Source of the DNA: Octopus vulgaris
Lineage: Eukaryota
Reading direction: 5' to 3'
NCBI GenBank assembly: GCA_951406725.2
Contig: OX597817.1
Location: 1,240,001 to 1,304,000 of the forward strand
Length of the DNA stretch: 64,000 nucleotides
The notes under the pieces were generated by a model. The model made no database searches, had not been told where the DNA came from, and saw only the letters and a list, made by a program, of their open reading frames with translations. Numbering within the stretch: the stretch's first letter is position 1; every line of letters starts with the position of its first letter. Positions 2,396-58,220 of the stretch are shown here, piece after piece. A program made the position numbers and the translations under genes.

Positions 2396-2416
2396 AAATT
2401 TGTAAATACTTTAAGC

Positions 2417-3015
2417 TCAGAGTGCTGAATCATCTTTTCCTCCCAAGCATTGCAACCAGTCCCCATGGCACCTCTCCACTTCCCAATCACTTTTGTTCGT
2501 ATCTAGTTTCTTCAGGTTTTCCTTCACGCAATCCTTTATACCTTTTCCTCGGCTTATGTTCTGGTCGCTTGCCAGAGTTGAGCTCACCATAAAAAGACGC
2601 TTCGGCAAACGCTAGTCTTTCATTCTAATAACGCGTCCTGTCCATCTCATTTGAGACAAGATAACATGTTGTTCAATTGAACTGCCACGTGCCATGCGCA
2701 AAACTTCTGTATCTCGTATGAAACATTCCCACTTGACTCCTAAGATATGTCTGAGGCACTTTTGATGAAATCTCTCCTGCATTTTTACATGACGCTTGTA
2801 AGTGCAGTCAATGCACACGCTTTATAAACACTGATCTTTGCCTGCAGGGAAATACCTCCATCCGCCCATACTCGCTTTTCGAGCTTTTCAAATGCAACAC
2901 TTCGCTTCCCATCCGATAGTATGTCTCTGCATCAAAACCACCATCTCTTGCTTCCAAGGTAAACATAGGTCTAAACGACTTCTAACCTTGTTCCATTCAC
3001 AAAAATGTTTGGTTC
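2417..3015 (-). mobile_element. Degenerate RTE-clade LINE fragment (RT C-terminal region)
   Basis: Minus-strand peptides QERFHQKCLRHILGVKWECFIRDTEVL..QMRWTGRVIRMKD and (L)PKRLF..KDCVKENLKKL resemble the RTE/BovB ORF2 C-terminus; frame broken by stops and frameshifts. Confidence 0.8.
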
Positions 3016-3032
3016 AGAATATATATATATTA

Positions 3033-3196
3033 TTCAGGTCACTGCCTGGAATCTAACTCGGAATCTTGGCGTTAGTAGCCTGCGCTCGCCATATGCCCAG
3101 GGTCATACGGCGTAGTGGTTAAGAGCGTGGGCTACTAACCCCAAGATTCCGAGTTAGATTCTAAGCAATAACCTGAACAACAACAACAACAACAAC

Positions 3197-3266
<70 letters not shown>

Positions 3267-3293
3267 GTAATAATAATAATGATAATAATAATA

Positions 3294-3351
<58 letters not shown>

Positions 3352-3552
3352 TAATAACAACAACAACAACATCGAAAAATATACATTAGGAATGAGAACC
3401 CAGGTTCGAATTTTTCCCAAGACACCTGAAGAAGGCTGGAGGGTATATCAGCCGAAACGTTGTGTTAACAACAAGCAAGATGAGGATAAATATCCGTTGA
3501 ATGTAAATAATGTAAATAATGCACATAACTCCTCATCTCTTAAATATAGAAG
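3033..3552 (+). mobile_element. Non-autonomous Penelope terminal-repeat derivative: inverted tRNA-like head + tRNA-like head + (AAT)n + hammerhead + tail
   Basis: 3033-3098 is an imperfect reverse complement of 3099-3178. A-box-like GGCGTAGTGG and B-box-like GTTAGATTC are present. The same unit lies at both ends of the Penelope ORF at 53.8-55.4 kb and at 42.1-44.3 kb. Confidence 0.8.
3421..3466 (+). ncRNA. Minimal type-I hammerhead ribozyme motif
   Basis: GACAC-CTGAAGA-a-GGCTG(gagggtatat)CAGCC-GAAA-CGTT-GTGTT: stem I GACAC/GTGTT, stem II GGCTG/CAGCC, palindromic AACGTT in place of stem III, putative GUU cleavage triplet. Confidence 0.75.
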
Positions 3553-4050
3553 TGTAGCACAATATTTCCTTTATTGAATTTTGCATTTGACCTTATCCTC
3601 GTATCCAATCTGCTCACCCGCTTTCGAAATGCTTTCCAAACACAACATGAGCATCACATTTTCAATATATTGAGAGATGAAAAATAATATCAGGTTTCCC
3701 GACAAATATCAGTGTCGTTGTGGCGTGATATATCAACATGATGGTGGATATCTGAGTAAGATAGCTTCAACATAAAGAGGTATGCAAGTCATATTCCTGA
3801 GCTGATGTCAGTAACCGTCGGGGCGATTGAGGTCTCAGCTCTGAAGTTCAGTATTAATGTATTTCCTATTGCCTGAGGCTTATTCCATAGTTCTGTTTGA
3901 ACACAACACTGCAGACAGCCGACATTCCAGTTTTCTTTTTTTTTTATTTCTGTTTTTTGAGTTCTATTTAACACAACCAATTCAGAAATTAGTTTCACTT
4001 ACAATATGGTCTGTCCCACTTTCTCTTCATGAAATCGCCGAGTTGCTTTT

Positions 4051-4466
4051 ATTTCTTTATTGACCACAAGGAGCTAAACGTAGAAGGGACAAACAAGGAC
4101 AGACAAAGGGATTAAATCGATTACATCGACCCCAGTGCGTAACTGGTACTTAATTTATCGATCCCGAAAGGATGAATGGCAAAGTCGACCTCGGCGGAAT
4201 TTGAACTCAGAACGTAACGGCAGACGAAATACCTGTTTCTTTATTACCCACAAGGGGCTAAACACAGAGGGGACAAACAAGTACAGACAAACGGATTAAG
4301 TCGATTACATCGACCCCAGTACGTAACTGGTACTTAATTTATCGACCCCGAAAGCATGAAAGGCAAAGTCGACCTCGGCGGAATTTGAACTCAGAACGTA
4401 ACGGCAGACGAAATACGGCTAAGCATTGCGCCCGGCGTGCTAACGTTTCTGCCAGCTCGCCGCCTT
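4051..4466 (-). mobile_element. tRNA-derived SINE family A, young copy with ~184-bp internal tandem duplication
   Basis: Minus strand reads AAGGCGGCGAGCTGGCAGAAACGTTAGC..GAGTTCAAATTCCGCCGAGGTCGACTTTGCCTTTCAT..GATAAATTAAGTACCAG. Body and tail occur twice. Many copies elsewhere in the window. Confidence 0.85.
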
Positions 4467-4512
4467 ACTTATAAACAAAAGCAACTTTCGTTGCTTTTGT
4501 TTATAAGTAAGT

Positions 4513-7936: not shown

Positions 7937-8254
7937 GGAGGCGCAATGGCCCAGTGGTTTGGGCAACGGACTCGCGGTCGGAGGATCGCGGTTTCGATTC
8001 CCAGACCGGGTGTTGTGTGTGTTTATTGAGCGAAAAAATCTAAGGCTCCACGAGGCTCAGTCAGGGGGTGGTAGCGACCCCTGTTGTACTCTTTCGCCCC
8101 AACTTTCTCTCCACTCTCTCTTCCTGTTTCTTGAGTAACGCTGCGATGGACTGGCGTCCCGTCCAGCTGGGGCAACACATACGCCCCAGAAACCGGGAAA
8201 CCGGGTCCATGAGCCTGGATAGGCTTGAAAGGGGCGCATAAATAAATAATAAAT
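7937..8254 (+). mobile_element. tRNA-derived SINE family B
   Basis: GGAGGCGCAATGGCCCAGTGGTT (A box)..GGTTTCGATTCCC (B box), body GCGATGGACTGGCGTCCCGTCCAG, (AAAT)n tail. Related copies at 35.8 and 44.8 kb. Confidence 0.85.
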
Positions 8255-11825: not shown

Positions 11826-11885
11826 TGTTAGATGATAGAATTGTTTTTAATACTGTGCACTCTCTACATTACTTAAAATGGCGAG

Positions 11886-12631
11886 ATGTACGTCCGACGA
11901 AGAAGTGGTGAATGGTTATCTCGTGCATGTGTGAAGAAGACAGCGAAATATGGAGAAGGCAGTGTAATGGTATGGAGGGCGATCTCTGATGTTGGTCCTG
12001 GTCTTCTTATTCACCTACAAGAGATTCTCCGATCTTCGTCAGTTCAACCTCCTATCTTCGTGCAGAACAACGCTGCCTGTCACACTGCGAAGGAAGTCAA
12101 AGATTTTTTGAGTGATGAAGGGGTTCATCTCATGGACTGGCCACCTCAAAGTCCCGATCTCAACCTTATAGAAAACGTTTGGAAGAATATTGGAGATGAG
12201 GCGCGAAGGAGAAATCCAAAGAACCAAGACGAAATCTGTGGATTATTGAAAAACGAATGGAACAATATTACTCCATCATTTTGCAAGAAATTAATTCAGT
12301 CCTGTCATAACAGATGTCAGGAGACCATTGACAGTAAAGGGATGTTCACAAAATATTAGTAGTAAGGGTTTCTCCTTTGTTCTTGTTCCATTTTTCATTG
12401 TTTTTCTAAGTGACCCTTAACTTTTGGCCGTTGCAGTTTGGAAGGTTATTTGTTTATTTCCTCGTAACTTACGAAATATTTATCCCATTCACTTGAAACT
12501 TTTACAAAAGATAGATATGAGATATATTTAAATATGTGTAAAATATCTAGTCTCAACGTTTTGTTAATCTTCTATAATAAACATTTTAATACACTTGTTC
12601 ATACTGGCCCCTATATTATGGCCGCTCCTGT
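11886..12631 (+). mobile_element. Tc1-family DNA transposon 3' half: internally deleted transposase (11886-12359) and right end
   Basis: YVRRR..GE..KYGEGSVMVW..IFVQNNAACHTAK..DWPPQSPDLNLIENVW is the Tc1 DD34E domain with the second D changed to N. The DR-like motifs CCCTTAACTTTTGGCCG (~12415) and CCCCTATATTATGGCCG..CTGTA (~12610-12631) suggest an IR/DR end. Confidence 0.85.
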
Positions 12632-15974: not shown

Positions 15975-16076
15975 ATTATGTATGTGTGTATGTATGTATG
16001 TATGTATGTATGTATGTATGTATGTATGTATGTATGTATGTATGTATGTATGTATGTATGTATGTATGTATGTATG

Positions 16077-16107
<31 letters not shown>

Positions 16108-16533
16108 ATATGTATGTATGTATGTATGTATGGATGGATGTATATATGTATGTATGTATGCATGTATGTATGTATGTATGTATGTATGCATGTATGTATG
16201 TATGTATGTATGCATGTATGTATGTATGTATGTATGTATTATGTATGTATGTATGTATGTATGTATGTATTATGTATGTATGTATGTATGTATGTATACA
16301 TGCATGCATGCAGGCATGTATGTATGTATGTATGCATGCATGCATGCATACATACATGCATGCATGCATGTATGTATGTACACACATACACTCACACACA
16401 CACTCAACATATATACACACATATATATACATGTATATATATATATATGAGGATATATGTATATATATATATATAGGTGTGCATGCGTACGAATATATAT
16501 ACGTATATATATATACATATATATGTACGTATG

Positions 16534-16609
<76 letters not shown>

Positions 16610-16948
16610 CGTACATATATATGCGTGTGTGTGTGTGTGTGTGTGCATGCATGCATGTATGTATGTATGTTTGTATGTATGAATAAATAAATGATAGAAA
16701 ATGGAATGAACGACATTCTTTACTTAAAAATCATTACTATTGTTATTTAACACACACACACACACATATACACATACACACACGCAGACACATGCAGACA
16801 CGCAGACACATGCAGACACCGAGTCATACTCATATATAGGCAAGGTTATTGATATATATATATGTATAAATACATAGTGGCATTCAAATATATGAAGTTG
16901 CAGGAGTTATTTATATGTATACATACATCCACACACGCATACCCCCCA

Positions 16949-17009
<61 letters not shown>

Positions 17010-17103
17010 TACACAGACACACGGACATGTATGCAAGTTTGTGTATCTAGTATATTATATATATAAATATGAATGTGTGGGTATGCACAATACACATACA
17101 TAT

Positions 17104-18169: not shown

Positions 18170-18580
18170 TATACTCTCTTTTACTCTTTTACTCTTTTCT
18201 TTCAGTCATTTGACTGCGGCCATGCTGGAGCACCGCCTTTAGTCGAGCAAATCGACCCCAGGACTTATTTTTTGTTAGCCAAGTACTTATTCCATCGGTC
18301 TCTTTTGCCGAACCGCTAAGTGACGGGGTCATAAACACCAGCATCGGTTGTCAAGCAATGCTAGGGGGACAAACACAGACATACAAACATACACACACAC
18401 ACATATACATATATACAACGGGCTTCTTTCAGTTTCCGTCTACCAAATTTACTCACAAGGCTTTAGTTGGCCCAAGGCTATAGTAGAAGACACTTGCCCA
18501 AGGTGCCACGGGGTGGGACTGAACCCGGAACCATGTGGTTGGTAAGCAAGCTACTTACCACACAGCCACTCCTGCGCCTT
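18170..18580 (-). mobile_element. tRNA-derived SINE family C, near full length
   Basis: Minus strand AGGCGCAGGAGTGGCTGTGTGGTAAG..GGTTCAGTCCCAC..CACCTTGGGCAAGTGTCTT, internal microsatellite, GTAAAAGA-repeat tail. Copies at 29.1, 36.2 and 58.0 kb. Confidence 0.85.
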
Positions 18581-19603: not shown

Positions 19604-20305
19604 TCTATCTATCTCATATTGAAATTACATTGGTATTTTCTCATTAGAACTATGTAATCTTATGCCATTTTCATCCCATTCTCCACGTCCCTCTCTTTCC
19701 CTTGTCACTCCTCTTACTGTCATTTCACTATTCTACGCCACACCATGCACACAATGCTTAAACACAATCCTCAACACCCGAAAATTCTTTTTCCCAAAAG
19801 CTTTTTTTATATATGTTATAGACATTGATTTGCAGATGTTCCAGCTGAACATAAAACGTATTGACAATACTTTACTTGCTCCGCAAAAGACATGAGAATA
19901 GTCACCATCCTAGACTAGAACATAAATAAAAGTTAACCTGGTTATTAAATCCGAGACTCAATCGGACTGAGTTAAGTAGAAAAAAAAAAGAAAGCTGAAC
20001 ATCATAAAATGGTGCCAATAGAATTGAAACCGGTATCGATTCGCTTAGATATACTGATTTGTTATGCACTTGACTATTTGAATTATTGTGAAAAGAAAAT
20101 TTACTTAGTGTTGAAAGTAAGACAAAACAAATAAAACACAATAAAAGAGAAGAACTTTCTCATGTGTCTTACTAATGTGATGAGCCTTTATGGTTATCGT
20201 AGAAGTGACAGATTTTTTTCTTTCCAATTTGATGACTGAATCTTACTTTATTTGGTGGCATCAACAGAAAAAGTACTCCATCCATTGAAAGATAAATTTA
20301 ATTTT

Positions 20306-20551
20306 ATATATACAGAATTTAAATTCCAATTACTCTTAGTTTCAAAGTGTGGAAACACGATGATCTGACAAGCTTATAAGTCGTACCGTGTGTTTCCAAG
20401 CAAGCAATTTTTCAGACACAAATATACAACATGGCTAGTTCTTCTGTATTTGAGTCTGAAAGGATGTTTACAAGCATACGGCACCCTAGACAAGCTTGTC
20501 AGGTCATTGTGCTTTCACAGCATGAAACTAATAGTAACTAGAATTTAAATC

Positions 20552-20560
<9 letters not shown>
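20306..20560. repeat. ~250-bp imperfect inverted repeat (foldback) flanked by TA repeats
   Basis: TATATACAGAATTTAAATTCCAATTACTCTTAGTTTCA..CTGACAAGCTT..TTCAGACACAAATA pairs with TATTTGAGTCTGAA..AAGCTTGTCAG..TGAAACTAATAGTAACTAGAATTTAAATCCTGTATATA. Confidence 0.85.
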
Positions 20561-20636
<76 letters not shown>

Positions 20637-22068
20637 CACAGTCAATGAGAAAACCCTTCTAGTATCATTCGACGTAGTTAATCTTTATTCTAACATCCCT
20701 CACAACCTAGGAATAGAAGCGATCACCTTCTGGCTGAATAACTACCCCTTTGAACTCCCAACTCGCATAAACAAAGACCTTATAATAGAAGGACTTAGAT
20801 TCATTTTAGAGAACAATTATTTTATTTTTGACAATGATTTCTACAGGCAAAGATCGGGAACAGCGATGGGCACGCGTACTGCACCATCTTTTGCCAACCT
20901 AGTGATGGGATACCTCGAGAAAATACTATACCGGATGACACTCGAGAAATATGGAAACACCTTCGCCACCTATATCCATAACAACTGGAAAAGATACCTC
21001 GATGACTGTTTCATCATCTGGGACAAAGGTATAGAGAAACTTGAGGAATTTAAAATACTATTAAATGGAATAAATGACAATATACAATTCACGATGGACC
21101 ACAACGAAAAAGAATTACCATTTTTAGACATCCTCATTAAGAAAACCGGCAACAAAATAGAGACAGATATCTACTATAAACTGACAGACTCTAAACAGTA
21201 CCTACCCTTTGATTCATGCCACCCACGACACACTAGAATGAATGTCCCTTTTTGTTTAGCTAGAAGGATTTGCACCATAATATCAGACACAAACACCCGA
21301 CACACACGTCTCCAGGAACTTAGAACCACACTCACAAATAGAAACTATCCACAGCCCCTAATAGACAGTGCAATCCAACGGGTACTTAAATTAAGTATAG
21401 AAGACCTGAGACAAACAAAACCAAAAAAGAAAGAACAATTAAAAACCCTTCCCTACATCTCTACACACAACCCACTCAACAATGAGGCCTTCAACACCAT
21501 ACTACAAAGCACAGCCCTACTAAAGGGAGACCCAAAGATGAACCGGATCCTCGAAACACACACCATCATTAAAAGTAAACGGCAACCAAAATCCTTGAAA
21601 AGGGTTTTAACCCAAGCTACACTGCACTCAACATCAACCACAAAACCAGCAGTTAGAAAATGTGGAAGGCCCAACTGCGGAATCTGTGTCATCTTGAAAG
21701 AAGGATCAGAATTTATACTGGAACAAGGCCACCAGTTCACCATTAGAACAAACTTCACCTGCGCATCAGAAAACTTAATTTACGTCATAACATGCGCAGG
21801 CTGCAATAGGCAGTATATAGGCCATACAAAAAATAGCTTACGTAACAGGATGGCGGTGCATAAATCACAAATTAGAAACCCTGATTACCGCAAAATACCG
21901 GTCAGCGGACACATAGATAGATGTGCTGGAAATGTAAATCCGAAATTTACAACTAACCCGCTCTATAAATTCAGTGACAACGCAACCTTCACACAACGCC
22001 AAAATAAAGAACTATATTTCATAAAAAAATTTAGACCAAGTTTAAACACCCTGGGCCAAGAATACTAA
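20637..22068 (+). CDS. Penelope-like element polyprotein (RT + GIY-YIG endonuclease), 5'-truncated, frame otherwise intact; Neptune/Naiad-type Cys linker
   Basis: LVSFDVVNLYSNIP, YRQRSGTAMGT..APSFANLVMG, WKRYLDDCF, FLD, Cys linker CGRPNCGIC, GIY-YIG NLIYVITCAGC..YIGHT..RMAVH..SGH..KE..FIKKFRPSLN. The ORF's nominal start lies in the upstream microsatellite. Confidence 0.93.
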
Positions 22069-23320: not shown

Positions 23321-23731
23321 ATATAATAACAATTAAACAAATAAAACATATGCATACATACATACATACATATATGTACATACCTACATCTATATGTATA
23401 TATACATGCATATATATATATATATATGAGTACAGGACACCACAAATAGACGTAGCACTCAACGAGAAACGAAAACATAAAAACAAACAGGGAAACGGAC
23501 TTTTTTTAACAACGAAAAAACAGAGTACAAGACAAACAATACAAGGAATATTCCCCTTCTTCAGCTGCCCCCGTTTCCTTGTTTGTTCTTATGTTTTCGT
23601 TTCTCGTTGTGTTCTACGTTTATTTGTGGTGTCCTGTACTTATATATATATATATATATATATATGCATGTATATATACATATAGATGTAGGTATGTACA
23701 TATACGTATGTATGCATATTTGTTAAATTGT

Positions 23732-23740
<9 letters not shown>
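23321..23740. repeat. ~420-bp palindromic element (arms ~175 bp, spacer ~70 bp), probably inverted Penelope-type terminal repeats
   Basis: AGTACAGGACACCACAAATAGACGTAG..CGAGAAACGAAAACATAA..GGAAACGG pairs with CCGTTTCC..TTATGTTTTCGTTTCTCG..CTACGTTTATTTGTGGTGTCCTGTACT; flanked by TA repeats. Confidence 0.85.
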
Positions 23741-29142: not shown

Positions 29143-29570
29143 CAGGCATGGTCATGTGGTTAAGAAGATCACTTTACTATCACATGGTTTCAGGTTCAGT
29201 CCCATTACATAGCACATTGGGTAAGTGTCTTGTACTATAGCTTCGGGTCAACTGATGCCTTGTGAGTGAATATGGTAGAGACGAAAATTGTGTGGAAGCC
29301 TATCTTATACATACATACACATATACATGAATATATATACAAATGCATATGTGTGTGTGTGTCTTTGTGTTTTTGTTAGTCCCTCTACAAGCGCTTGACA
29401 ACCACTGCTGGTTTGTTTCCGTACGCATAACTTAGAGGTTCATCGAAAGAACTGATAGAATAAGCACCAGACTTCAAAACATAAGTACTGAGGTAGATTA
29501 GTTTGACTAAATTGTTCAAAACGGTGCCCCGGCATGGCCACAATCCAATGACTGAAACAAATAAAAGATG
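29143..29570 (+). mobile_element. SINE family C, diverged copy
   Basis: CAGGCATGGTCATGTGGTTAAG..GGTTCAGTCCCA..TTGGGTAAGTGTCTT..GATAGAATAAGCACCAG..ATGACTGAAACAA. Confidence 0.8.
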
Positions 29571-30256
29571 AAAATGTCCTCTTTCTTTGGCAAACTTACA
29601 AATATTCCTCCACTACGTTCACCGCTGTCACTCTGCCATTTTACTGATTTCTACTGTATTATGGTCGTTTCGAGGATATAACTGGTAAAATTGTTGATGG
29701 TGCTGGAAGAAAAGAATAGGAAGTCAGAAGTGTTGCGACTAACAGGATCGAAACCGCCGAAGTTGTGGTCCCGGTCTGCTAAGTAAACATCTGGCATCCG
29801 ACAGTGCATAAGTTACCAATTTAAAATCAATGCTGGGACCACTGTACGTCACTTGTTTATTTGCATCCAGTAAAGTTTCGCTTACTTCCTGTCATTCATT
29901 CGTGATATCGTCTGGTCGAAATTTGATATTACTGGAAACGGAAAAAGGAAATAATTACATTGATTGAGAATAGAAAGATGAAGCAAATACATTTCCCTCC
30001 CACACAAACAGCAATATAAGTTAAAAGCTAACGAGGAAACCACCGCTAGGTGGCCAAGCTACCTGCTAGAAATAGCATCCAAATTTCCCTACGAAAAAGA
30101 AAGACGGCATAACCTAAGTGTACTGTTTGGGGAAGGAAGACGAATACGGGATGGTCACGAAGGGAATGCCCCTGTGGTAATTTGCTTGATCAAAGTCCAT
30201 CTGTGGTTAAACAACTCTTCTCTCACTCCTCTGCTCCTCCATCTCCGCCTACCACC

Positions 30257-30311
<55 letters not shown>

Positions 30312-32555
30312 TTACTACTACTACTACTACTTTACCAGTTTCTTTTCCTACTTATTACATTTGTAGGTTTGCCTCTCATTATTTAATAAGCTGAAGGGGA
30401 CGAGTTGTGGATATTTAAAATCTAGGCCAGCTTTGACTAACCCAGCAGAGATGTTCTGTCCGTGAACAGAAAGTTTATTTTTATTTCAAGCATAGTGGAT
30501 ATAGGACTACATCATCTGATGTCATCTCCTTCACTTTTGAAAACGTAATGGTTTAAATTCAAGGAGATTTAGTTGCTATTTCTAGCAAGTCGAATAGTAA
30601 CTATGTAGTAGAAATCATCATGGATGCTTTTGTACAATTGGAAGGGGCTGTTGAATCAATTTCTCACTGTTGTTGTTTAACTGAAGATTACCTCTGCTCT
30701 AGCGGAGAGATGAAGATTAAAGGCTTTCCTCCATGGCTGCCCCGTCTTTTTGATAATTATATTATCCATTATGTCCTTCCCTTTTTAAGACACATAAATA
30801 GGATTTAAGGGAAATTCGGTTTATATTTGTAAGAAGACGTCGAATGCATCCGCATTCACCGAGTTGACGAAACACGTTACCCGATATTTTATAAATATTG
30901 AAGTTCTGCTTTCAAATCCCGTAGACCAGACTGTCTACCCTAGGAATATCTATAAAATAAGCAGCTTTTTCCTTTTCTTTTTTTTTTCTTGGACATGTTG
31001 AGTATTCACTCCATCGCAACTCAAAAGTTTCTCGTAAGCGTTATCATTCAGTCGACTAGAAGTTGAATGGTTGCACATACTGAGATGTTATGAGTAACGA
31101 CGGAGTAAATGGGCACTTTGGAACGAATAAACAAAATCTGCCGCATGTATTGAGTACATTTTCTCTCGTTTGTACAGCCCAATTTATATTTAGGCATAAA
31201 CACACGTTCATATACATGGATACATACATACATGTTTATAAGCATACGTTTTAAATGTAAGCTACAATAAGTTTTATGCTCTAATAGTACAATAGTCGAA
31301 AGAGCTTGTATAGTGTGCCGTGTACTATTTAGTAATCTTTCAGGTTGAAAATAAAACATGGCTTTTCTCTAAGAAGAGAGAGAGAATGGGAAAGATCGAA
31401 AGAGAAAATGAGAAAAGAAGACGTCAGAAGCTGGGAAGGGAAATAAAGGTTGTGTCCCCTTGGTCCGTTAGAATGGTAATCAACGATGGTTGGTATAGCT
31501 AATTCGACGGGAAATGCTAGTTTTTGAGACTCTGCCTAATCTGGAGAGTGTTTGTGTTCTACAGTTCGATAATAGTTTAGGATTAGTGAATAACGAACGA
31601 AATATCCTGCCACCTCACATCTTTCAGCAGGCTCTTAGAATCAATGCTGCTCAGAATGCTACGTCAATATACTAAATTTTGTGACTTAAATGTTAGATAA
31701 TTAAAATTTTCCCCACAATAAGGAGAGAAAAAATGTAATAGGGTGATGGTGATAATAGCAGATGTGGTTAAGTCTTGCATGACTGCACGATCTCAACGGT
31801 AAGTATAGTCTGAATCATAACTTTCAGGTTTTAGATGACTGGAGAAGTATATAGAATTTCATTGTGTGACCAGTGAATGGTGTTATGACTTTAAAGAGTA
31901 CCAGGACGGGAATACTCAGGTCCCCTGATGCACGAACAACGAAGAGTAAAGTGGAACTAACATATTGTTAGTTTCCCTGAAATTTTAATTAATGGATGCT
32001 ATACATCAGAATATATATATAACAGAACTGCATTAGTATGTTTCGGGTCACATTGAACGTAACTGTATCATACCAATAAAAAGCAAATGTATTTGAATGC
32101 TTGATAATTCACTACTTGCAATGCGTTGAGGTAACTAAATAGTTTACTGTAATTCATCAGCGGAAACAAAGTTGATCGACAGATCTCCAAGGGAGTAAAA
32201 TGGGGAAAGTGAGTTGTCTCTCACAGTGAAATGTTTGACAGTTCTTAAAATTCTCCAAATTGTAGTACTTACAAACCATATGTTCGACCACATTGGGAGT
32301 TCAAGTGTAAGGTTGTGATGCCAATCTGATAAAGAGCGTGGTGGGGGAATACTGGAAAAGATCCAACTAAATCCAGTAAGATTATTGTTCTACACCTGTT
32401 CTGATTGTAATTTACGGATCAAGGATCTAATAGTAGTTCTTCAAATCATTGCGAGTTAGACAACGGATGTATTTAGTTTGTTTTCCTCTCAAATCACACA
32501 CACACACAAATACGCGCGCGCGCGCGCACACACGCAAACACACACATATATATAT

Positions 32556-32789
32556 GTTTCTTTATTGGTCACAGGGGGCTAAACATAGAGGGGACAGACA
32601 AGGACAGACAAAGGAATTAAGTCGATTATATCGACCCCAGTGCGTAACTGGTACTTAATTTATCGACCCCGAAAAGATGAAAGACAAAGTCGACCTCGGC
32701 GGAATTTGAACTCAGAGCGTAAAGTCAGACGAAATGCCGCTAAGCATTTTTCGCCCGGCGTGCTAACGTTTCTGCCAGCTCACCGCCTT
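32556..32789 (-). mobile_element. SINE family A, full-length young copy
   Basis: Nearly identical to 4236-4466. Confidence 0.9.
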
Positions 32790-33823
32790 ACATCTATACC
32801 AATAATAATTGGTGCAGTTGCTTTTATGAGTAAATGCCTAAGTGACAATCTGGATAAGCTAAGATTTTCAGAAAAAGAAATCAACCAATAAACTTGCACG
32901 TTGCAAATGCAATTTGTGAGTCAAGGATTAAATACCAAGAATTGAATATCATTCCTTTCATCCTTTCATGGTTCGATAAAAATGTACCAGTGTATAAATG
33001 TAACTGTAAGAACATCGGACTGGGTGCCTTGCAATATTTATTATCGCTTATTACGTTCTGAGCTCGAATACCGCCATGTTTAGTTGGGCGGTAGATTTAC
33101 TGCGCCGCTCGGTTTAACGCCTCGTGTGACCTCTTAGCAGAGTTCACTTCATTGGAAGCATACGGGTCAAGCCTGCAGTTTTTGGACGCCTTTATTTCTC
33201 TCTCCAACCAGTTTTGGTGGGGCTGTAAAGGAGCATAATTATCTCAGCTGATTAAAACACATTAAAACACTCTGCACTTACACGTACTTATGCACAAGCC
33301 ACATATAAATCACAAGTATTACGTATATATTTAGCATTGATTACTAAAATACTTGACGAGAAGTTTGAAATGGAGCCAACAGCTAAGATCAGGCCTGGCT
33401 CTATTATCGTTTCAAATGCAGCCAACATTTCTCATCTGGCCTGGGTTTATTATTAATTGAAATCAGGATTATATTTTGCATCTGTCTTGAGCCTGTTACC
33501 AGCTTCGCACGGAGCTGCCTCCCTGAAGACTAATGTGATAATTACGTCACTTTAGACACTGAGATCAACTTTGCTCTTCTTTCTTCCGTTGCTCGTAAAG
33601 TACGATAGTTCATATAAATGACTATACCTAACGCTCCATTCATACACAATCCTCATACGTTTAACAATTTACTTGGCATATTTCAATCAAACGTAGTCGC
33701 TTATCCGTTTGTGTATTCATTTTTTGTTTCTAATACAGTTATTTTGGCATTGCGATTTCGTCCTCTCCAATACAAGATACAGCTATTACTCCAGACATGA
33801 ATTTTTAGGGTGTTTTCTTAATA

Positions 33824-35788: not shown

Positions 35789-36045
35789 GAAGGCGTGTGG
35801 CTTAGTGGTTAGGGTGTCAGCACCATGATCGTAAGATTGTGGTTTCGATTCCTGTACCGAGCGACGCGTTGTTTTCTTGAGTAAAACACTTCATTTCACG
35901 TTGCTCCAATCTATTCAGCTGGCAAAAATGAGTAACGCTGCGATGGACTGGCGTCCCGTCCAACTGGGTAACACTTACACCATAGAAACTGGGAAACCGG
36001 GCTCATGAGCCTGGCTAGGCTCTTAAAATTGCGTATTTATTAATT
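35789..36045 (+). mobile_element. SINE family B variant (different head, shared tail)
   Basis: GAAGGCGTGTGGCTTAGTGGTTAGGG..GGTTTCGATTCC; tail GAGTAACGCTGCGATGGACTGGCGTCCCGTCCA matches the one at 8133-8165. Confidence 0.8.
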
Positions 36046-37885: not shown

Positions 37886-37920
37886 AATATATTTTATTAT
37901 TTTATTCTTTTATATGTTTT

Positions 37921-38590
37921 AAGGCGGTGCGCTGGCAGAAACGTTAGCACGCCGGGCGAAATGCGTAGCCTAATTTCGTCTACCGTTACGTTCTGAGTTC
38001 AAATTCCGTCGAGGTCGACATCGCCTTTCATCCTTTCGAGTTCGATAAAATAAGTACCAGCTGAAAGCTGGGGATCGATGTCATTTTACCTCTCCCCTAA
38101 AACTGTTGGCCTTGCGCCAAATTTTGAAACCATTATCATGATGATGATTTTTATTATTGAAGGCAGTGAACCGACAAGCTGGCAGAAACGTTAACGTGCC
38201 GGACAAAAAAAAAAGAATCTTCGCAGGATTTATTCCGTCTGTACATTCTGAGTTCAAGTTCTACCGAGGTCGAGTTTGCTTTCATCTTTTCCGGGTCGAG
38301 AAAATAACTACCAGTTAAGTACTGAGGTCGATGTAATTGACTTACCCCCACACCCGAAATTGCTGGCCTTGTGCATAAATTTGAAACTTAAAACGGCGAG
38401 CTGGTAGAATTGTTAGCACGCCGGACAAAATGCATAGCAGCATTTGGTTCGTCTTTACGTTCTGAGCTCAAATTCCGCCGAAGTCAACTTTGCTTTTTAT
38501 CTTTTTGGATTCGATAAGATATATACCAGTTGATGTAATCCACTGGTCTCTTGCCAAAATTTTAGGCCTTCTGCCTACAGTAGAAACAAC
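37921..38590 (+). mobile_element. Three head-to-tail SINE family A copies (37921-38130, 38160-38390, 38391-38590)
   Basis: Each has (GG)CG.GCTGG.AGAA..GTTA.C.CGCCGG, then GTTCTGAG.TCAA.TTC..CGA.GTC.AC; the copies are mutually diverged. Confidence 0.85.
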
Positions 38591-41530: not shown

Positions 41531-42194
41531 AACGATGCGTAGGCATGCGCAGAGGATGCGATACCTCAATGTTACCTTTACGGTGATAACAGGAACTATC
41601 TAAGCATTTACTTGTTGTTTTAGTGTGGCTATATTACTTGTGGTTGTTATTGTGATGCAAGGTGTACGGTTGTGTGTGTGTGTGTGGGGGGTTGTTATTT
41701 TGTTGGTGGTGATAGTATTTAACTCTATAGAGTGTTTTATGTTTTCTTTTACGGGTTATTTGATAGCATTGTTGAGGTGATAATGTCCTAGTTGATATGT
41801 AGCTTCAGGTAAGCTCTATCTGCGTACATATGAAAGGCAGGTGCAGACCTGGGGGGGGGGCGGTCTGTTATGCCATACAAACCACTTAGCTTAAGATCAT
41901 AAAACACTCTTCGATATGCAGTGATGTAGGAGTACAACGTGGCCGTAGATATCATCTAATCTCTCCATTGTCTTCTATTTCTGTACGCGTCTAGATTTTG
42001 GTGGTGACCATAACGAGTTTCGTCAAAATGGGTTCGATCAAACTATCTCAGTGGTGTTGTTGTTAGTAGTAGTATTTTTCAGTTCTATATTAAAGAGATG
42101 AAGAATTATGTACATTATTTACATTATTTACCTTATTTACCTTATTTACATTATTTACATTCGACGGATATTTGTCTTCATCTCGTTTGTTGTT

Positions 42195-42240
42195 AACACA
42201 ACGTTTCGGCTGATATACCCTCCAGCCTTCTTCAGGTGTC
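42195..42240 (-). ncRNA. Minimal type-I hammerhead ribozyme motif
   Basis: Reverse complement is identical to 3421-3466. Confidence 0.75.
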
Positions 42241-42286
42241 TTCGGGAAATTTCGAACCTGGGTTCTCATTCCTAAGGTATTTTCGA

Positions 42287-42340
<54 letters not shown>

Positions 42341-42441
42341 GATTATTATTATTATTATTATTATTATTGTTCAGGTCACTGCTTGGAATCGAACTCGGAA
42401 TCTTGGGGTTAGTAGCCCAAGTGACCTGAACAATAATAATG

Positions 42442-42615
<174 letters not shown>

Positions 42616-43944
42616 GGGATAAATGAAGACTCTGGTATTCAGCATGCAAGCATGAAAGAGAAAATCAGGAAGGAATGTTATAGGAGAGTTCGTGCAGTCC
42701 TGAAATCTGAACTAAATGCACGTAACAAGGTGTTAGCTATAAATTCCTTAGCAGTTCCAGTTGTTACTTATAGCTACAATGTGTTGAACTAGAATATGAG
42801 TGAAGTAAAGAATATAGATAGAAAAATACGCAAGCTGCTGAGTTGTAATAGGATGCACCACCCAAAGGCAGACGTAGATCGCCTTTACCTTCCCAGAGCC
42901 CAAGGAGGTCGAGGCCTGATCCAATTTGAACTAGCTTACAAAACAACCACAATTGGACTGGCCAAATATCTCGAAATATCGAATGACTGGATGCTAAAGC
43001 TCGTGGAAAATCACGAGAGACGAAAGAAGCTTCATTCTATCATAAAGGAAAGCAAAAGATTTGCTATTGATCTCGTGCAGGATACCCAAACTGAACAACC
43101 CGAGGGAAGTACGGCAACTATTGTTGCAAAGAAGGTGAAAATGATGGCAATAAAAAAAGCGCACGAGCAATTGGCTGATAGATGGGAGGAGAAACCTCTG
43201 CACGGCAAATATGTGACCCGCAGCAAACAAGCTGATGTTGACCAGAAGCAAACCCATCAGTGGCTACGGAGCTCAGGGCTAAAAGCAGAGAGCGAAGGTT
43301 TCATCCTGGCTGCTCAAGATCAAAGCCTATTAACCCGGAACTACCAGGCCAATGTGATGAATAATGGAGCAGACCCAAAATGCCGATTCTGCAACATGAT
43401 TGAAACAGTGGACCACCTAATCTCTGGATGTAAAGTCTTAGCACCAGTGGAGTATAAATTAAGACATGACAGAGTTGGCCAATATCTCCACTGGCTAATA
43501 AGTCGGCATTACAATATCAAAACTGCCGACAAGTGGTATAATCACCACCCTGAGGCTGTAACTGAAGGAGAAAATGTAACCATTCTGTGGGACTTTCCAG
43601 TACATACAGACCGAACCATCAAGGCCAATAAACCAGATATTGTTGTGAAAGACCAAAACAATAAAGTTTGCTTATTGATCGACATGAGCATCCCCTGTGA
43701 TCATAATATCTCAGCGAAAGAGTTTGACAAGCTCAGAAAATATAAAGACCTACTCATTGAAATTGAGAAAATGTGGCATCTCAAGGCGGTTACAATACCA
43801 GTGATCGTAGGAGCACTAGGAATGATCAAGAAGGGAACCGAAAATTATATGAGAATGATCCCTGGCTTACCATCCCTGCAAGAAGTGCAAAAGATTGTCT
43901 TAACTGGTACATCACACGTATTGAGAAGAGCATTGTCGATGTGA
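42616..43944 (+). pseudogene. R4/Dong ORF C-terminal part (thumb, CCHC knuckle, restriction-like endonuclease), one in-frame TAG at 42790-42792
   Basis: RLYLPRAQGGRGL, KPLHGKY, AAQDQSLLTRNY, CRFC..ETVDHLISGC, RHD, ANKPDIVV..IDMSIP..KLRKY. Confidence 0.9.
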
Positions 43945-44121
43945 GAACTGTTGCTGCTCATGTATTTTAATTTAACTTTAAAAAAATAAATTGAAAAAAA
44001 ATGAACGAACTAGTGAGTTTGGTTTAATGGCCTACCAATGTTTACTATGAGTTTCTTTGCCCTAGGAGTCGGGAAGACACTCGGCAAGAAATGGAAGCAA
44101 ATTTGAAAGAAGAAAAAAAGC

Positions 44122-44122
<1 letters not shown>
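42616..44122 (+). mobile_element. R4/Dong-clade non-LTR retrotransposon, 5'-truncated, inserted in (TAA)n
   Basis: RT C-terminus through REL endonuclease plus ~180-bp 3' UTR; (TAA)n on both sides. Confidence 0.9.
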
Positions 44123-44187
<65 letters not shown>

Positions 44188-44234
44188 TCGAAAAATACCT
44201 TAGAAATGAGAACCCAGGTTCGAAATTTCCCCAA

Positions 44235-44279
44235 GACACCTGAAGAAGGCTGGAAGGTATATCAGCCGAACGCTGTGTT
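44235..44279 (+). ncRNA. Hammerhead motif, mutated (GAACGCT in place of GAAACGTT); probably inactive
   Basis: GACAC-CTGAAGA-AGGCTG..CAGCC-GAACGCT-GTGTT. Confidence 0.5.
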
Positions 44280-44769
44280 AACAACAAACAAGATGAGGAG
44301 AAATATACGTCGAATGTAAATAATGTAAACAAGTATTATTTTTGTTCTTGTTGTTGGTTATGGTGGTGGTGATGATCATAGTGTTTAATCGAGCAGACTT
44401 ATGATCAAAGACGCGCCAGTAACGAACATTTGATCACATCGAGGACTCCATTTGCCACTGTATTGCTTATTGAAGACATTAGGGTGTGATTAGCACTTGC
44501 CTGCTATTTCTATCTGGTAGAGCGGCCGCATAGAAGATCTCGCACTGGTTGGATAGTTGTGTTGTTGTTTAGTTCCAGGTTAGCAGTAAAAGACCAAAGA
44601 CGTTCCAACCGTGCCTGCTCCGTCTTCTTGTGCATCTCAGACTCATACACAGTGGTGCCATTTTCTCAATGATTCCCGAGTTGTATGTACTTTGAAGGAA
44701 ATTAATTGCCATTTCCAGCAGATAAAACGACTATGTACCGGCTCCATCGCTTGCCCTTTGTTGTTGTTT

Positions 44770-45060
44770 GTTCCTTCTCGAGCCACGCCTGGCTCATAAG
44801 GGCCGGTTTCCCGGTTACCTTGGCGTATAGGTTCCCCACCTGGACGGGACGCCGGTCCGTCGCAGGTGAGCTGCAGGAGGAAAGAGTGAGAGAAAGTTGT
44901 GGCGAAAGAGTCAGCAGAAGTTCGCCATTACCATCTGCCGGAGCCGCGAGGAGCTTAGGTGTTTTCGCTCATAAACACACACATCACCCGGTCTGAGATT
45001 CGAACCCGTGATCCCTCGACTGCGAGTCCGCTGCTCTAACCACTAGGCCATGTGCCTCCA
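44770..45060 (-). mobile_element. SINE family B
   Basis: Minus strand GGAGGCACATGGCCTAGTGGTTAGAGCAGCGGACTCGCAGTCGAGGGATCACGGGTTCGAATCTC. Confidence 0.85.
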
Positions 45061-52544: not shown

Positions 52545-52756
52545 TTTCTATTCCAGGCACAAGGCTCGAAATATTTGGGAAGGGGCCAGTCGATTATATC
52601 GACCCCAGTACACAACTGGTACTTAATTTATCGAACCCCGAAATGATGAAAGGTAAAGTCGACCTCGGCAGAATTTGAACTCAGAAGGTAAAGACAGACG
52701 AAATACTGTTATGCATTTCGCCTGGCGTGTTAACGCGTTTGCCAGCTTGTCGCCTT
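52545..52756 (-). mobile_element. SINE family A
   Basis: ATCGACCCCAGTACACAACTGGTACTTAATTTATCG..GTCGACCTCGGCAGAATTTGAACTCAG..GCCAGCTTGTCGCCTT. Confidence 0.85.
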
Positions 52757-52864: not shown

Positions 52865-52866
<2 letters not shown>

Positions 52867-53061
52867 ATTAATAATTAAGGGTACTACATATAGTACCAGC
52901 ACGCTAAAAATAGAAGTCAGTAGGCGACTACAATCACAAATTTTCTCTGGTGCACATTAATTGAATAATGTTTATCAGTGAAAATTTGTGGTTGCAGTTG
53001 CCTTCTGACTGCTCTTTTTAGCGTGCTGGTGCTATTTGTAGCACTCTTAATTATTAATTAA
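52865..53061. repeat. ~195-bp imperfect hairpin (arms ~90 bp, loop <10 nt)
   Basis: TTAATAATTAAGGGTACTACATATAGTACCAGCACGCTAAAAATAGAAGTCAG..CACAAATTTTC pairs with GAAAATTTGTG..CTGACTGCTCTTTTTAGCGTGCTGGTGCTATTTGTAGCACTCTTAATTATTAA. Confidence 0.85.
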
Positions 53062-53250: not shown

Positions 53251-54059
53251 GGAAAGTTTGCGCGTTTGTGAATTTGTTATTTCTCCGAGTCTGTCCAACA
53301 GACCTTGATGAAATTTGACACGTCTGTGAGGCTTATGTCCATGCGGTGACTTACGCATTTGGAATTTTTAATAAGTCGATTTGTAATCAGTATCGATCTT
53401 TCAAAAATCGTAAAATTTCGGCATTATTCGCACTTGCCATCGTGACATCAATTTGACGAAAAATGTTTCATGGGTATAATAAACAGACAGCTTATTAACG
53501 GTAATCTGTTTAGCATTTGCGAATTCTTCCTTTCAATGCGAATTGTTTTGATTTGCTAAAGCTTATTATTTCAATTCGTTGTTTTAATTCCCCACCGATT
53601 CAGGTCTTGAGTAGGTAAGACCATTTTATTTCTTGAAAAAAATTTAGGCATTTTGCGCACTAGCTGTCGTGATATCGATTTGACGAAATCTGTCTCAAAG
53701 CATAAAATTTCGCCATTTTACATACATACATACATACACACACACATACACACACACACACAGATATAGACAAGAAAGATTACAAAGTCGTGGCCAACTG
53801 GAAATACAGCTCTGTATTTAAGAGATGAGGAATTATGTACATTGTTTACAGTTGACGGATATTTGTCATCTTGTTTGTTGTTAACACAACGTTTTGGCTG
53901 ATATACCCTTCATCATGAGGTATTTTTCGATGTTATGGAATTGAGCTCGGAATCTTGGGGTTAATAGCCCGCGCTCTTAACCACTACGCCATATGCTCGT
54001 GGGCAATTATGGAGTGAATTTTGGGGTTTATAAATCTAATATTTTCTATTCTTCCGTAA

Positions 54060-55078
54060 TACCGTTTCCCATATGCTATTCATATCTGCACTTGGTCTGC
54101 TTAGGTGATTGTGTCCTAGCATATGTGCTGCTTCTTTTAGTTTTCGTATTTTCCAGTGGTGTTCTCTGTCTATTATTTTACCTTCATCCCACTGGGGGAG
54201 GTGTCTCTATTTTTCCATACATGGTCAGCGATATCTGATTCATCAATATCTCCTCGTGTCACAGCTTTGTGATGTTCGTCTACCCTTATTTTGAAGGGGC
54301 AGCATGTTTCGCCTTTGTATAACCTACAACGGCTGCATGGGTTGGTGTACATGCAGTCTTTGATCATATTCTTTTTCATTGGTGGTTTTACTCGAAGGAG
54401 ATATTTGCGAAGTGTTGTATTACTCCTGAATTCTGTCCTGATGTCACATGGGCCGCACATCTTTTGTATCTTTTCGGAGAGGCCTTTCACATAGGGTAGA
54501 CAGACTGTGGACAATTTATTGGTTTCATCCTCGCTTTTCTTCATAATTAGAGTGGATAGTATATTTTGGGGATAGTTGTTGCTTAATAGATTGTTATTGA
54601 GCTTGATCATTTCTTCGTGGTGTGTATCACGATCGCTATTTATATTATTTGCTCGATGTTCTAGGCACTGATCAATCCCTCGCTTTATACTGTATGGATA
54701 GTGGGAATTGCAGTTGCGGTATCGTCCATTGAAGGTCTGCTTGCGGTATACGGATGTCCTGAATCCATACTTGGTGCGTGTTATTAATACGTCCAGGAAT
54801 GCTAGCTAATTGTCTTTTTCCTTTTCCATTGTGAACTGTATGGATGGCTTTATTGAGTTCACATGATCTAACAGCACTTGGACATCTTCCTGGTGGGGCC
54901 AGAGTATAAAGGTGTCATCAACATATCGCAGCCATACGGTTGGTTTTAGTGGTGTTGATCCTAAAGCCAAATTCTCAAAGTATTCCATATATATATTGGC
55001 TATTATCGGTGATAATGGCGAGCCCATAGCTAAACCGTCCTCTTGTCGATATATATCGGTGTCCATACGGAAGTAGCT
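54060..55078 (-). pseudogene. Penelope RT + GIY-YIG pseudogene
   Basis: YRQEDGLAMGSPLSPIIANIYMEYFE..WLRYVDDTF..IQFTMEKE*LAFLDVLI..VYRK..LPYVKGLSEKI..CMYTNPCSRCRLYKGET..RVDEH..IADHVW; in-frame stop and frameshift. Confidence 0.9.
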
Positions 55079-55131
55079 AGTTTATAAGTTTTAGATTTAT
55101 AAGCCCTGAAATTCACTCCATAATTGCCCAC

Positions 55132-55195
55132 GGGCATATGGCGTTGTGGTTAAGAGCGCGGACTACTAACCCCAAGATTCCAGGTAGTGACCTGC
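55132..55195 (+). promoter_or_regulatory. tRNA-derived Pol III-type head inside the Penelope terminal repeat (B box deleted in this copy; B box intact at ~42385-42400 on -)
   Basis: GGGCATATGGCGTTGTGGTTAAGAGCGCGGACTACTAACCCCAAGATTCC..AGTGACC; consensus across copies TGGCGTAGTGG..GAGTTCGATTCC. Confidence 0.65.
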
Positions 55196-55201
55196 ATAAT
55201 G

Positions 55202-55232
<31 letters not shown>

Positions 55233-55245
55233 CAACAACAACAGC

Positions 55246-55325
<80 letters not shown>

Positions 55326-55375
55326 CATCAAAGAATACATTTAGGAATGAGGACCCAGGTTCAAAATTTCCCCAA

Positions 55376-55420
55376 GACATCTGATGATGGCTGGAGGGTA
55401 TATCAGCCGAAACGTTGTGC
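55376..55420 (+). ncRNA. Minimal type-I hammerhead ribozyme motif with canonical CUGAUGA
   Basis: GACAT-CTGATGA-t-GGCTG(gagggtatat)CAGCC-GAAA-CGTT-GTGC. Confidence 0.7.
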
Positions 55421-57283: not shown

Positions 57284-57480
57284 GTATGAAATTTTGGCAC
57301 AAGGCCAGCAATTTCGGGGGAGCAGTAAGTTGATTATATCGACTCCACTGTACAACTGGTACATATTTCATCGACCCCGAAAGAAAGATAGGCAAAGTCG
57401 ACCTCAGTTGAATTGGAACTCAGAACGAAAAGCCGGAAGAAATACTGCAAAGAATTTTATCCGGCGTGCTAACGATTCTG
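57284..57480 (-). mobile_element. SINE family A with (AAT)n tail
   Basis: TTTTGGCACAAGGCCAGCAATTTC..ATCGACCCCGAAAG..AAAGTCGACCTC..GAACTCAGAACG..GGCGTGCTAACGATTCTG. Confidence 0.85.
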
Positions 57481-57974
57481 TACTGATCCTTAACTTTTGA
57501 AATGCTTAGGCTCTGGAAAAGAGATATGATGCTATTCCATGGAGTGAAACATCGTTTCCGGATCATAAAGCTACGCCCACGGTTCATATCTTGTGTCTCC
57601 ATGTCGAAAATAATCATATCTTGGCTTCAACAACTTCCTGTAGATCAGAGCGATTTCCACCATTCTCTCCTCCAAACTATGTGTAAAGTTTACATAGACT
57701 TTCCGATAACCAATCGGAAGGAGCACTGTCGAAACGTAAGGTGTATCATGGACATTTTAAAGCAGTTGGAATTCATCCCTCTACAGTTCTTCGTATTCTT
57801 TTCTCCAAAGGGAGAAAAGAATACGAAGGATCGACTGTAATACTGAAGTGATACTTTATCGGCTCTGCAAGGGTGAAATGCAAATTCTACATTGTTGGGA
57901 TTTGAATTAAGAGAAGAAAAATCTTGAAGAAATAACGAAAGCCTTCGATCCTCTGTCAAATCGTAGTCTTTTAG

Positions 57975-58173: not shown

Positions 58174-58220
<47 letters not shown>

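Follow-up and report, generated by a model that had tools for sequence, protein, structure and literature searches.

A tRNA-headed hammerhead repeat of Octopus vulgaris as the terminal repeat of a Penelope-like element, and a decayed head-to-head copy of it

The locus at positions 3030-3554 of the analysed window (the whole stretch of Octopus vulgaris DNA under study, 64 kb long) carries a copy of an abundant repeat cassette, the features of which are collected in Table 1. Positions with respect to the cassette are counted from the first G of the tRNA-like head, which is position 0 (window 3101). A first-pass annotation had described the locus as a palindromic cassette that begins right at a tRNA head, and this description holds, as an inverted and a direct head face each other across a centre of two nucleotides. 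The direct arm runs through a triplet tract into the tail part, which is the terminal repeat (pLTR, see below) 3' of the AAT tract (3368-3554), and the element ends at 3554. The inverted arm includes a single AAT unit, beyond which it abuts a (TA)n run, and has neither hammerhead nor tail. Directly to the left lies a frameshifted 3' fragment of an RTE-like LINE (2400-3020, minus strand), which is not resumed in the right flank beyond 3554; a target duplication or a continuity of host sequence was sought at the locus and neither was found, the left arm being cut short there. The T5 run is private to this copy, as the family has T3 at this site, and would terminate Pol III before the hammerhead is reached. 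With both boxes damaged (T8>C and C56>A) and this new T5 run, the copy is likely dead or silent. The B-box change C56>A is the one private change that is common to both arms. This is in line with one arm having been made from the other, with a change present in the template from the outset, or with later conversion; in the second case, the template was a poor Pol III gene. In itself, the copy is ordinary.

The hammerhead is of the minimal type I. Stems I and II are present in its predicted fold, a palindromic ACGU replaces stem III, and the cut is predicted after 3461. Rfam and ARAGORN call neither the head nor the hammerhead, and both were identified by motif, fold, and alignment. The identity to the hammerhead of a copy at about 42.2 kb, which had been pointed out before, was recovered (3419-3474 is the reverse complement of 42187-42242 over 56 bp), and it is unremarkable, because the 31-mer of this hammerhead has 2,195 exact copies in the genome (the reversed control has 0). 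The copy had also been termed ORF-less, which is correct for the ORF body, but the ATG at 3392 opens 61 codons, the first ~54 of which are the N-terminus of the Penelope ORF. As to the expected conservation of the ribozyme core, the outcome depends on how the arms were chosen: in tail-selected arms, for which the background of this comparison is raised by subfamily sites, the core is better conserved than the other non-CpG positions (14/860 vs 376/9,966, P=0.0005), but it is not so in arms unselected on the tail (18/448 vs 291/5,549, P=0.32). The only high-frequency non-CpG variant inside the ribozyme is at N7, a free core position, and the pattern fits selection in the masters and neutral decay later. 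Hammerhead-cut RNA was considered as the main template and rejected, as 5' ends are not clearly enriched where the ribozyme would cut: they are scattered over the tail part, and 3 independent loci have theirs at the cut site vs about 1 expected. This is consistent with a main template that would be uncut RNA, as reported in vitro, and the minimal type I hammerheads of Penelope-like elements have been predicted to cut only as dimers (PMC4209133).

Table 1. Features of the locus at 3030-3554 and of the other insertions of the family in the 64-kb window (window coordinates)
Feature	Position	Strand	Basis
Inverted tRNA-like head, ~66-69 bp; A box traversed by an 11-nt deletion	3030..3098	-	alignment
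Palindrome centre, 2-nt loop of the GCCC-AC-GGGC hairpin (AG in this copy); recurrent inversion point of the family	3099..3100	.	alignment, fold
tRNA-derived head, first G = 3101	3101..3176	+	alignment to genomic tRNAs
A box (T8>C in this copy)	3108-3118	+	alignment
B box (C56>A in this copy, also in its inverted arm)	3153-3161	+	alignment
(AAC/AAT)n of variable length; landing site of an R4/Dong-type LINE in other copies	3177..3367	+	
5' end of the Penelope ORF within the pLTR, ATG 3392, ~54 codons, putative start codon	3392..3554	+	
T5 run, private to this copy (family: T3)	3411..3415	+	
Minimal type I hammerhead	3421..3466	+	pattern, fold, match to the architecture described in PMC4209133
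Hammerhead stem I	3421-3425/3462-3466	+	
Hammerhead core CUGAAGA, followed by an extra A before stem II	3426-3432	+	
Hammerhead stem II	3434-3439/3448-3453	+	
Hammerhead GAAA	3454-3457	+	
Optional ~30-nt 'tail' between the two 3' end points of the family; long end in this arm	3520..3554	+	
Second ORF-less head-to-head insertion; AAT tract of the right arm interrupted by an R4/Dong-type LINE	42080..44332	.	
R4/Dong-type LINE fragment inside the right arm of 42080-44332	42620-44122		
Copy of the parent element, 5'-truncated, with RT/GIY-YIG 3' half, leader, and pLTR; its 5' end bears a pLTR in inverted orientation	53807..55419	-	

Two further insertions of the family lie in the window. Five cassette arms, four of them with a recognisable hammerhead, had been counted in the 64 kb, but these arms belong to only three insertion events, and the strict hammerhead pattern fits three arms, as the fourth hammerhead (at about 44.24 kb) is short of one A of the GAAA and that of the arm at 53.9 kb is broken. 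The insertion at 53807-55419 is bounded by a 12-bp target duplication. With 3 loci in 64 kb, the window is about 4 times richer than average, as systematic sampling of 1 Mb gave 11 loci with the cassette. The LINE fragment at 42620-44122, which we take to be of the R4/Dong class from its motifs and for which a Pfam scan gave no match, is a later insertion into the AAT tract, and as it sits within this tract, it was ruled out as the partner of the cassette. The Penelope-like element in this way seeds landing sites, its AAT tracts, for the R4/Dong-type LINE. The fragments of this LINE at 42620-44122 and 62189-63434 are 95-98% alike and both end in AAT tracts, and the LINE is found inside the Penelope pLTR in the window and at one further locus (L028), with a more distant relative in this position at another (L036).

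Also other repeats are frequent in the window. There are at least three other abundant short repeat families, several members of which lie beside AAT tracts: one family has A/B-box heads at its start (7937-8232, 35929-36021, 44773-45059), one is found at 4052-4479, 32555-32802, 37920-38533, 52588-52756, 57326-57480, and 63527-63650, and another at 18177-18562, 29155-29574, and 57967-58756. Other palindromic stretches (23321-23739, 15979-17021, 52865-53060, 60980-61056) are mostly on TA/TATG microsatellites, and the arms of the one at 23321-23739 are non-repetitive. A 160-aa frame at 11877-12359 (plus strand) presumably resembles the C-terminal part of a Tc1-type transposase. Elsewhere in the genome, a dense cluster of tRNA-Cys-like sequences was encountered (L246), which includes variants with ACA and ACT anticodons.

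The sequence context identifies the cassette as a pLTR (terminal repeat), which belongs to an autonomous Poseidon-type Penelope-like element (PLE), and shows that the 'tail' is where the ORF of this element starts, as the head follows the ORF end, the tail runs into the ORF, and an 838-codon frame spans it. At 53807-55419, the cassette sits after the stop codon of an RT/GIY-YIG-type ORF with a leader of ~40 nt in between, and when ORF ends were collected with a query that stops before the head, the head came next in 27 of 30 loci (match to at least position 90 of 119) and was deleted in the remaining 3. On the other side, the tail continues into the ORF in the loci L165 and L171 and in 30 further ORF-start loci; L165 begins at the head, with no interruption between its tail and the ORF, and a partial tandem is present at L171. 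The majority sequence is a unit of 2.64 kb with a single 838-codon frame whose ATG lies upstream of the hammerhead. This 838-aa frame contains RT and GIY-YIG-region motifs and is 57% identical over 830 aa to a relative, P0003, which retains the peptide encoded across the hammerhead. The pLTR has the order leader, tRNA head, (AAT)n, hammerhead, ORF start, and it is found behind the ORF stop and, in 5'-complete copies, also before the ORF. The repeat is contiguous with an ORF that encodes an RT (Pfam RVT_1 match) as well as a C-terminal GIY-YIG, for which the Pfam match is weak in P0003 (E=0.23) and the C-terminal motif was found by pattern, and a minimal type I hammerhead in the pLTR overlaps the ORF start. 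In the window fragment of the parent element, Pfam did not find the GIY-YIG. The designation 'Poseidon-type' is putative and was given from the domain order and from motifs such as DKG.

Some copies deviate from this arrangement. ORF-start copies often end 150-270 nt into the ORF body and are there joined directly to another piece of the pLTR (L272-L300), and this points to jumps between templates or to insertions of the element into its own 5' part. Two loci that are 1 Mb apart, L287 and L299 (= L302, L301), have an identical junction of ORF base 234 to -6 and different 5' parts; a non-autonomous derivative with this junction (ORF base 234 joined to the head at -6) was considered and rejected, with only 2 copies genome-wide on one contig. 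A distant PLE fragment lies in the window at 20542-22068 (plus strand), with a 508-aa frame that matches Pfam RVT_1 and GIY-YIG and is 33% identical to the cassette family, and its 5' end abuts a TA-rich palindrome (20292-20575). Relatives on metagenome contigs (9 loci at 30-55% identity) had an A/B-box match in 0 of the 6 that were checked and are too distant to inform on the head.

The head of the family is nearest to a tRNA-Arg (49/73 identical, score 64; shuffles have a mean of 34 and a maximum of 50) when compared with 35 distinct tRNA sequences of the same genome, for which 8 anticodon types were called. The assignment to tRNA-Arg is tentative, because the comparison covers part of the tRNAs only and similar scores are reached by other SINE heads. 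The register of the alignment puts G1 at position 0. The cassette has this tRNA-derived head with its A and B boxes at the 5' end, and the majority sequence of the family keeps the invariant bases of both boxes; the cloverleaf stems are broken, and ARAGORN under relaxed settings gives a mis-registered fold. On the sense strand of the 2.6-kb unit, T4 runs are absent vs 2.9 expected from synonymous shuffling (P=0.023) or 2.6 from a Markov model (P=0.081). T4 runs are likewise missing from a piece of R4 LINE ORF in the window (P=0.12), the other PLE (20542-22068) has 7 in 1.4 kb, and the deficit of the coding unit is weak. Pol III on tRNA-type genes starts a few bases upstream of G1. From the intact A and B boxes, the 5' ends described below, and the lack of a T4 run, we infer that the element would be transcribed by Pol III. 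In three RNA runs of one study (about 6% of each was read, as 150-nt cDNA reads), both orientations are about equally frequent, and 66-72% of the matching reads continue into unlike sequence, which fits passenger transcription. No site where many molecules begin was found in these three runs, whose libraries are of a kind that would miss short uncapped RNAs. Loose ends of the RNA lie exactly before G1 (174 reads, one run) and at two 3' ends 32 nt apart.

The 5' ends of the family were determined on 117 head arms from loci that were unselected on their 5' end, with both palindrome arms counted; in palindromes, the limit of -7 takes in the overshoot into the opposite arm. Seventy of these 117 arms start at -7..+3, and 36 start at +4..+60 (11 at +4..+15, 15 at +16..+30, 7 at +31..+45, and 3 at +46..+60), with 2 upstream starts in the true leader (-22..-8) and 9 further up. 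Also single-arm copies start at -7..+3, and on the direct strand only 2 of 30 ORF-start loci reach to the head start, which speaks against the reading favoured below. Exact 22-mers of the head occur genome-wide 2,931 times at +28, 3,735 times at +1, and 1,775 times at -6, and those upstream 532 times at -12, 743 times at -144, and 138 times at -622. Corrected for decay, this amounts to about 15,900 arms at +28, 13,700 at +1, 3,900 at -12 (a noisy value from a survival of 6/44), 1,600 at -144, and 430 at -622. The drop is 3.5- to 7-fold over 13 nt vs ~14% over the preceding 27 nt of the head. With this sharp step at the head start, uniform truncation fails. When 5' end points and inversion breakpoints were examined as the first-pass annotation had proposed, they piled up at the tRNA start, and the uniform distribution that would have spoken against its view did not occur. 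Its suggestion of a Pol III-initiated template stands as far as the peak of ends and inversion points at the tRNA start is concerned, for which initiation by Pol III itself is a probable reading.

The inversion points were analysed in the palindromes. Leader and head form a predicted hairpin (-14..+12), and the palindromes consist of a perfect inverted head around a 2-nt loop and lack the two extra bases of the leader, and therefore the switch point lies between -7 and -3. The centre with the AC loop has 559 matches in the genome, corresponding to ~425 loci (76 loci per 100 of the matches listed), and the loopless centre has 11 loci; palindromes with bases -2 and -1 outnumber those without them ~39-fold. 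The outer flanks match over at least 8 nt, as expected for a target duplication around the whole unit, in 31 of 49 inverted pairs vs 0.7% of mismatched pairs. The two 3' ends differ, one being short and the other long, in 54 of 69 inverted pairs. At a subfamily site, the arms agree in 46 of 48 A/G pairs, where independence would give ~16 mismatches. Inverted pairs are single insertion events. They correspond to the head-to-head inverted, 5'-truncated copies with junction palindrome that are known from PLEs, as does the 30-40 nt tail that is present at one end only, and head-to-tail arrays of at least two hammerhead units, as in retrozymes, were not found among the copies, which are single or head-to-head. 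Private changes in palindromes are common to both arms in 38 cases vs 576 arm differences in all, and the templates were therefore near-consensus. At N7 of the hammerhead, the arms disagree in 9 of 45 A/T pairs, which is above the decay expectation, and some palindromes may come from two templates. Examples of arms that differ at N7 (A vs T), with the linked downstream site mostly agreeing, are L004, L011, L018, L183, L184, L187, and L209, and such differences reflect either a mutable site or two-template events.

The reading that we favour, with somewhat better than even confidence, is that the locus is one decayed head-to-head pLTR insertion, and that the RNA from which it was made began a few bases upstream of the head, probably by Pol III. 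In the mechanism that we propose, the A and B boxes would start transcription at about -6 to -3, and the RT of the element would initiate internally, using either of two sites a short distance downstream of the hammerhead, in the way that has been shown for PAc of the anole, where initiation is also internal and just downstream of the hammerhead (PMC11167929). If the RT starts on the 5' pLTR of the transcript, an ORF-less cDNA would result that runs off at the 5' end of the RNA, and with internal initiation ORF-less copies are therefore to be expected from any transcript that starts in the 5' pLTR. The run-off cDNA would end in the self-complementary GCCC-GT-GGGC, which could fold back and prime its own second strand to give the palindrome, and an RT start on the downstream pLTR would yield the ordinary 5'-truncated ORF copies. 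The ORF-less copies would then be SINE-shaped by-products of the same masters. The N7 disagreement in 9 of 45 pairs is left without explanation by pure fold-back, and so is the translation of an uncapped Pol III RNA by the mechanism as a whole. A Pol II promoter in the leader is also conceivable.

As the hairpin coincides with the predicted start, the start site and a fold-back hotspot are not fully separable. In an alternative reading, the RNA would come from Pol II or from read-through and would be longer, and the hairpin of leader and head would make the RT stall or fold back, so that the peak would be structural and the tRNA head an inert 3'-UTR passenger that was captured once. The predicted hairpin indeed coincides with the peak, inverted junctions with palindromes have been described for PLEs that lack tRNA heads (PMC3846280), other PLEs have an intron-bearing pLTR promoter of the Pol II type (PMC8557442), and the RNA reads show no pile-up of starts. 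However, a stall predicts ends at the 3' foot of the stem (+10..+12), where the 11 starts at +4..+15 face the 70 at -7..+3, and a read-through with subsequent fold-back should retain the extra 2 nt of the leader, which is seen in only 2 of 117 arms. That single-arm copies share the same start, and that the boxes are intact in the majority sequence in which the stems have decayed, also argues against this alternative, which we consider unlikely.

Alternatively, the ORF-less copies could make up a SINE-like family that is independent, has masters of its own, and is transcribed by Pol III, with the Penelope protein acting in trans to move it. In one hundred 10-kb stretches at fixed coordinates (1 Mb), 12 clusters of the family were found, 11 with the cassette and 10 without ORF, which gives a genome-wide estimate of ~31,000 loci (Poisson 15,000-55,000); the count of the 31-mer gives ~22,000 hammerhead arms (survival 4/41). 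Among the first 30 loci with the hammerhead pattern, 24 of 27 clusters (3 duplicates dropped) are ORF-less, 16 of these being inverted pairs. The large ORF-less share, 83-89% of loci, speaks for an independent family, as does the fact that each ORF-less copy has a promoter-like head and the region of the RT start, that PLE proteins act in trans on pLTR-bounded sequence (PMC3846280), and that non-autonomous PLEs exist (PMC8557442). Against it, the alleles are common to both classes (A at N7 in 7/33 ORF-linked vs 11/50 ORF-less arms, Fisher P=1; the second subfamily allele in 9/43 vs 11/48, P=1), none of 121 positions passes Bonferroni as a private diagnostic site of ORF-less copies, and on a tree built from 137 arms the number of changes required for the ORF label is 24 vs 25.1 in shuffles (140/500 as low), a tree of little resolution that was made from 121 columns and from arms that cover positions 20-140. 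This tree places the 3030-3554 copy with three ORF-linked arms at a fork without strong support. Divergence from the majority outside CpG is similar, with 3.2% and 3.7% for the two classes of arms. Also the near-consensus templates of the palindromes and the fact that the head belongs to the autonomous element stand against a separate family: neither a non-autonomous lineage with a head of its own, absent from the autonomous partner, nor a 3' end borrowed from a LINE partner was found, the head being in the autonomous pLTR and the 3' part being the PLE ORF start. A site that had appeared as a lineage marker (B146, initial P=0.002) was dismissed, as the effect is largely gone in long-tailed arms (9/82 vs 1/29) and was confounded by the short 3' ends. 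In a weak test, with a pattern that missed the family's own heads, none of 47 A/B-box matches in the loci examined belonged to a sibling SINE that joins this head to a different tail. As the alleles are common, the tree is interleaved, and private sites are missing, the ORF-less copies are read as products of the same masters as the ORF-linked ones, with no separate SINE lineage visible at the level of sequence, and we regard an independent family as rather improbable. Fresh ORF-less copies could be re-transcribed and moved in trans. The very high-copy non-autonomous partner that had been postulated for the locus exists in the sense that the copies are numerous and mostly ORF-less, but a distinct partner family was not found.

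A cut of a long transcript at the tRNA-like +1 by RNase P or a similar activity, with the cut product as template, would account for the many single ends at 0 or +1 and for the loose RNA ends exactly before G1, but it would remove the bases -2 and -1 that are retained by most palindromes, and the cloverleaf is broken, which makes this explanation very improbable. Random 5' truncation and inversion of the autonomous element without any special start is hardly credible and, despite the scattered truncation and inversion points in the tail region and in the ORF, is refuted as the sole explanation by the step at the head start.

Beyond the single locus, it is conceivable, and we propose it only tentatively at clearly less than an even chance, that the captured tRNA head has switched an autonomous PLE to Pol III, so that one promoter drives the coding unit and also the ORF-less copies that fold back at the 5' end of the RNA. 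If so, this would be a protein-coding retrotransposon that is run from a Pol III promoter, and a SINE that is born in cis from its own driver. A working promoter in the tRNA head would offer one route by which SINE-like elements arise, and it would contradict the expectation, formulated for LTR elements (PMC10886601), that autonomous partners cannot rely on Pol III. In annotation practice, about 30,000 loci would be mis-annotated as SINEs or tRNA pseudogenes. The proposal bears also on the origin of the head-to-head inverted ends of PLEs, for which self-priming on an antisense template has been proposed (Arkhipova et al., PMC3846280): the one dominant inversion point beside a predictable RNA 5' end points to a fold-back of run-off cDNA instead, which, if true, would supply a defined primer.

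Several known systems share parts of this organization. Pol III promoters that derive from small RNAs and lie within a terminal repeat are known from the TRIMp3 elements Cassandra, Helenus, and Ajax (Kojima 2024, PMC10886601), where transcription from the promoter has been validated for Cassandra and is inferred for the others; TRIMp3 are non-autonomous LTR elements whose autonomous partners are argued to need Pol II, whereas the octopus repeat is part of a protein-coding PLE. The Sm-alpha repeats of Schistosoma (reviewed in PMC6765202) likewise combine a Pol III-type promoter and a hammerhead in one short SINE-like repeat, but they are head-to-tail repeats, their hammerhead cuts in vitro, and no link to a PLE ORF is stated in the available text of that review. 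Animal non-LTR retrozymes (PMC7229834; bioRxiv 10.64898/2026.07.22.740005) are similar as ORF-less hammerhead repeats for which an origin from PLE pLTRs has been proposed, and they differ in that they form head-to-tail arrays which give circular RNAs, whereas the octopus copies are single or head-to-head, have a minimal hammerhead, and begin with the tRNA head. A published repeat annotation of an octopus genome lists Penelope, SINE, and Dong-R4 families, with no hammerhead in the accessible main text (PMC13282606). In the literature searched, the available parts of which did not extend to Repbase or to the supplements of PMC8557442 and PMC13282606 that may hold the family, a tRNA-headed PLE pLTR was not found.

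The ribozyme itself does not differ from the minimal type I hammerheads of PLEs as far as these are described (Cervera and de la Pena 2014, PMC4209133), with which it shares the long stem II, the short stem I, the unpaired base before stem II, G10.1-C11.1, the palindromic 15.2-16.2, and the lack of stem III. Poseidon_Ac of the green anole (PMC11167929), Pen2/Pen2a of Adineta (PMC3846280), and other PLEs (PMC8557442) are alike in the hammerhead-pLTR that overlaps the ORF start, in two 3' end points ~30 nt apart with a tail at one end, and in the head-to-head inverted 5' copy with junction palindrome, target duplications, and frequent 5' truncation. A promoter in the pLTR has been reported or assumed in these three papers, in the available text of which none is tRNA-derived. 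The insertion anatomy of the octopus family is standard for PLEs; a complete tRNA-derived head together with (AAT)n in the pLTR is the octopus feature in comparison with those elements, as is the excess of ORF-less over ORF copies (~6-8 to 1) with a common start point, and what appears to be new is a pLTR that starts with a tRNA-derived head, and copies that start and fold back there.
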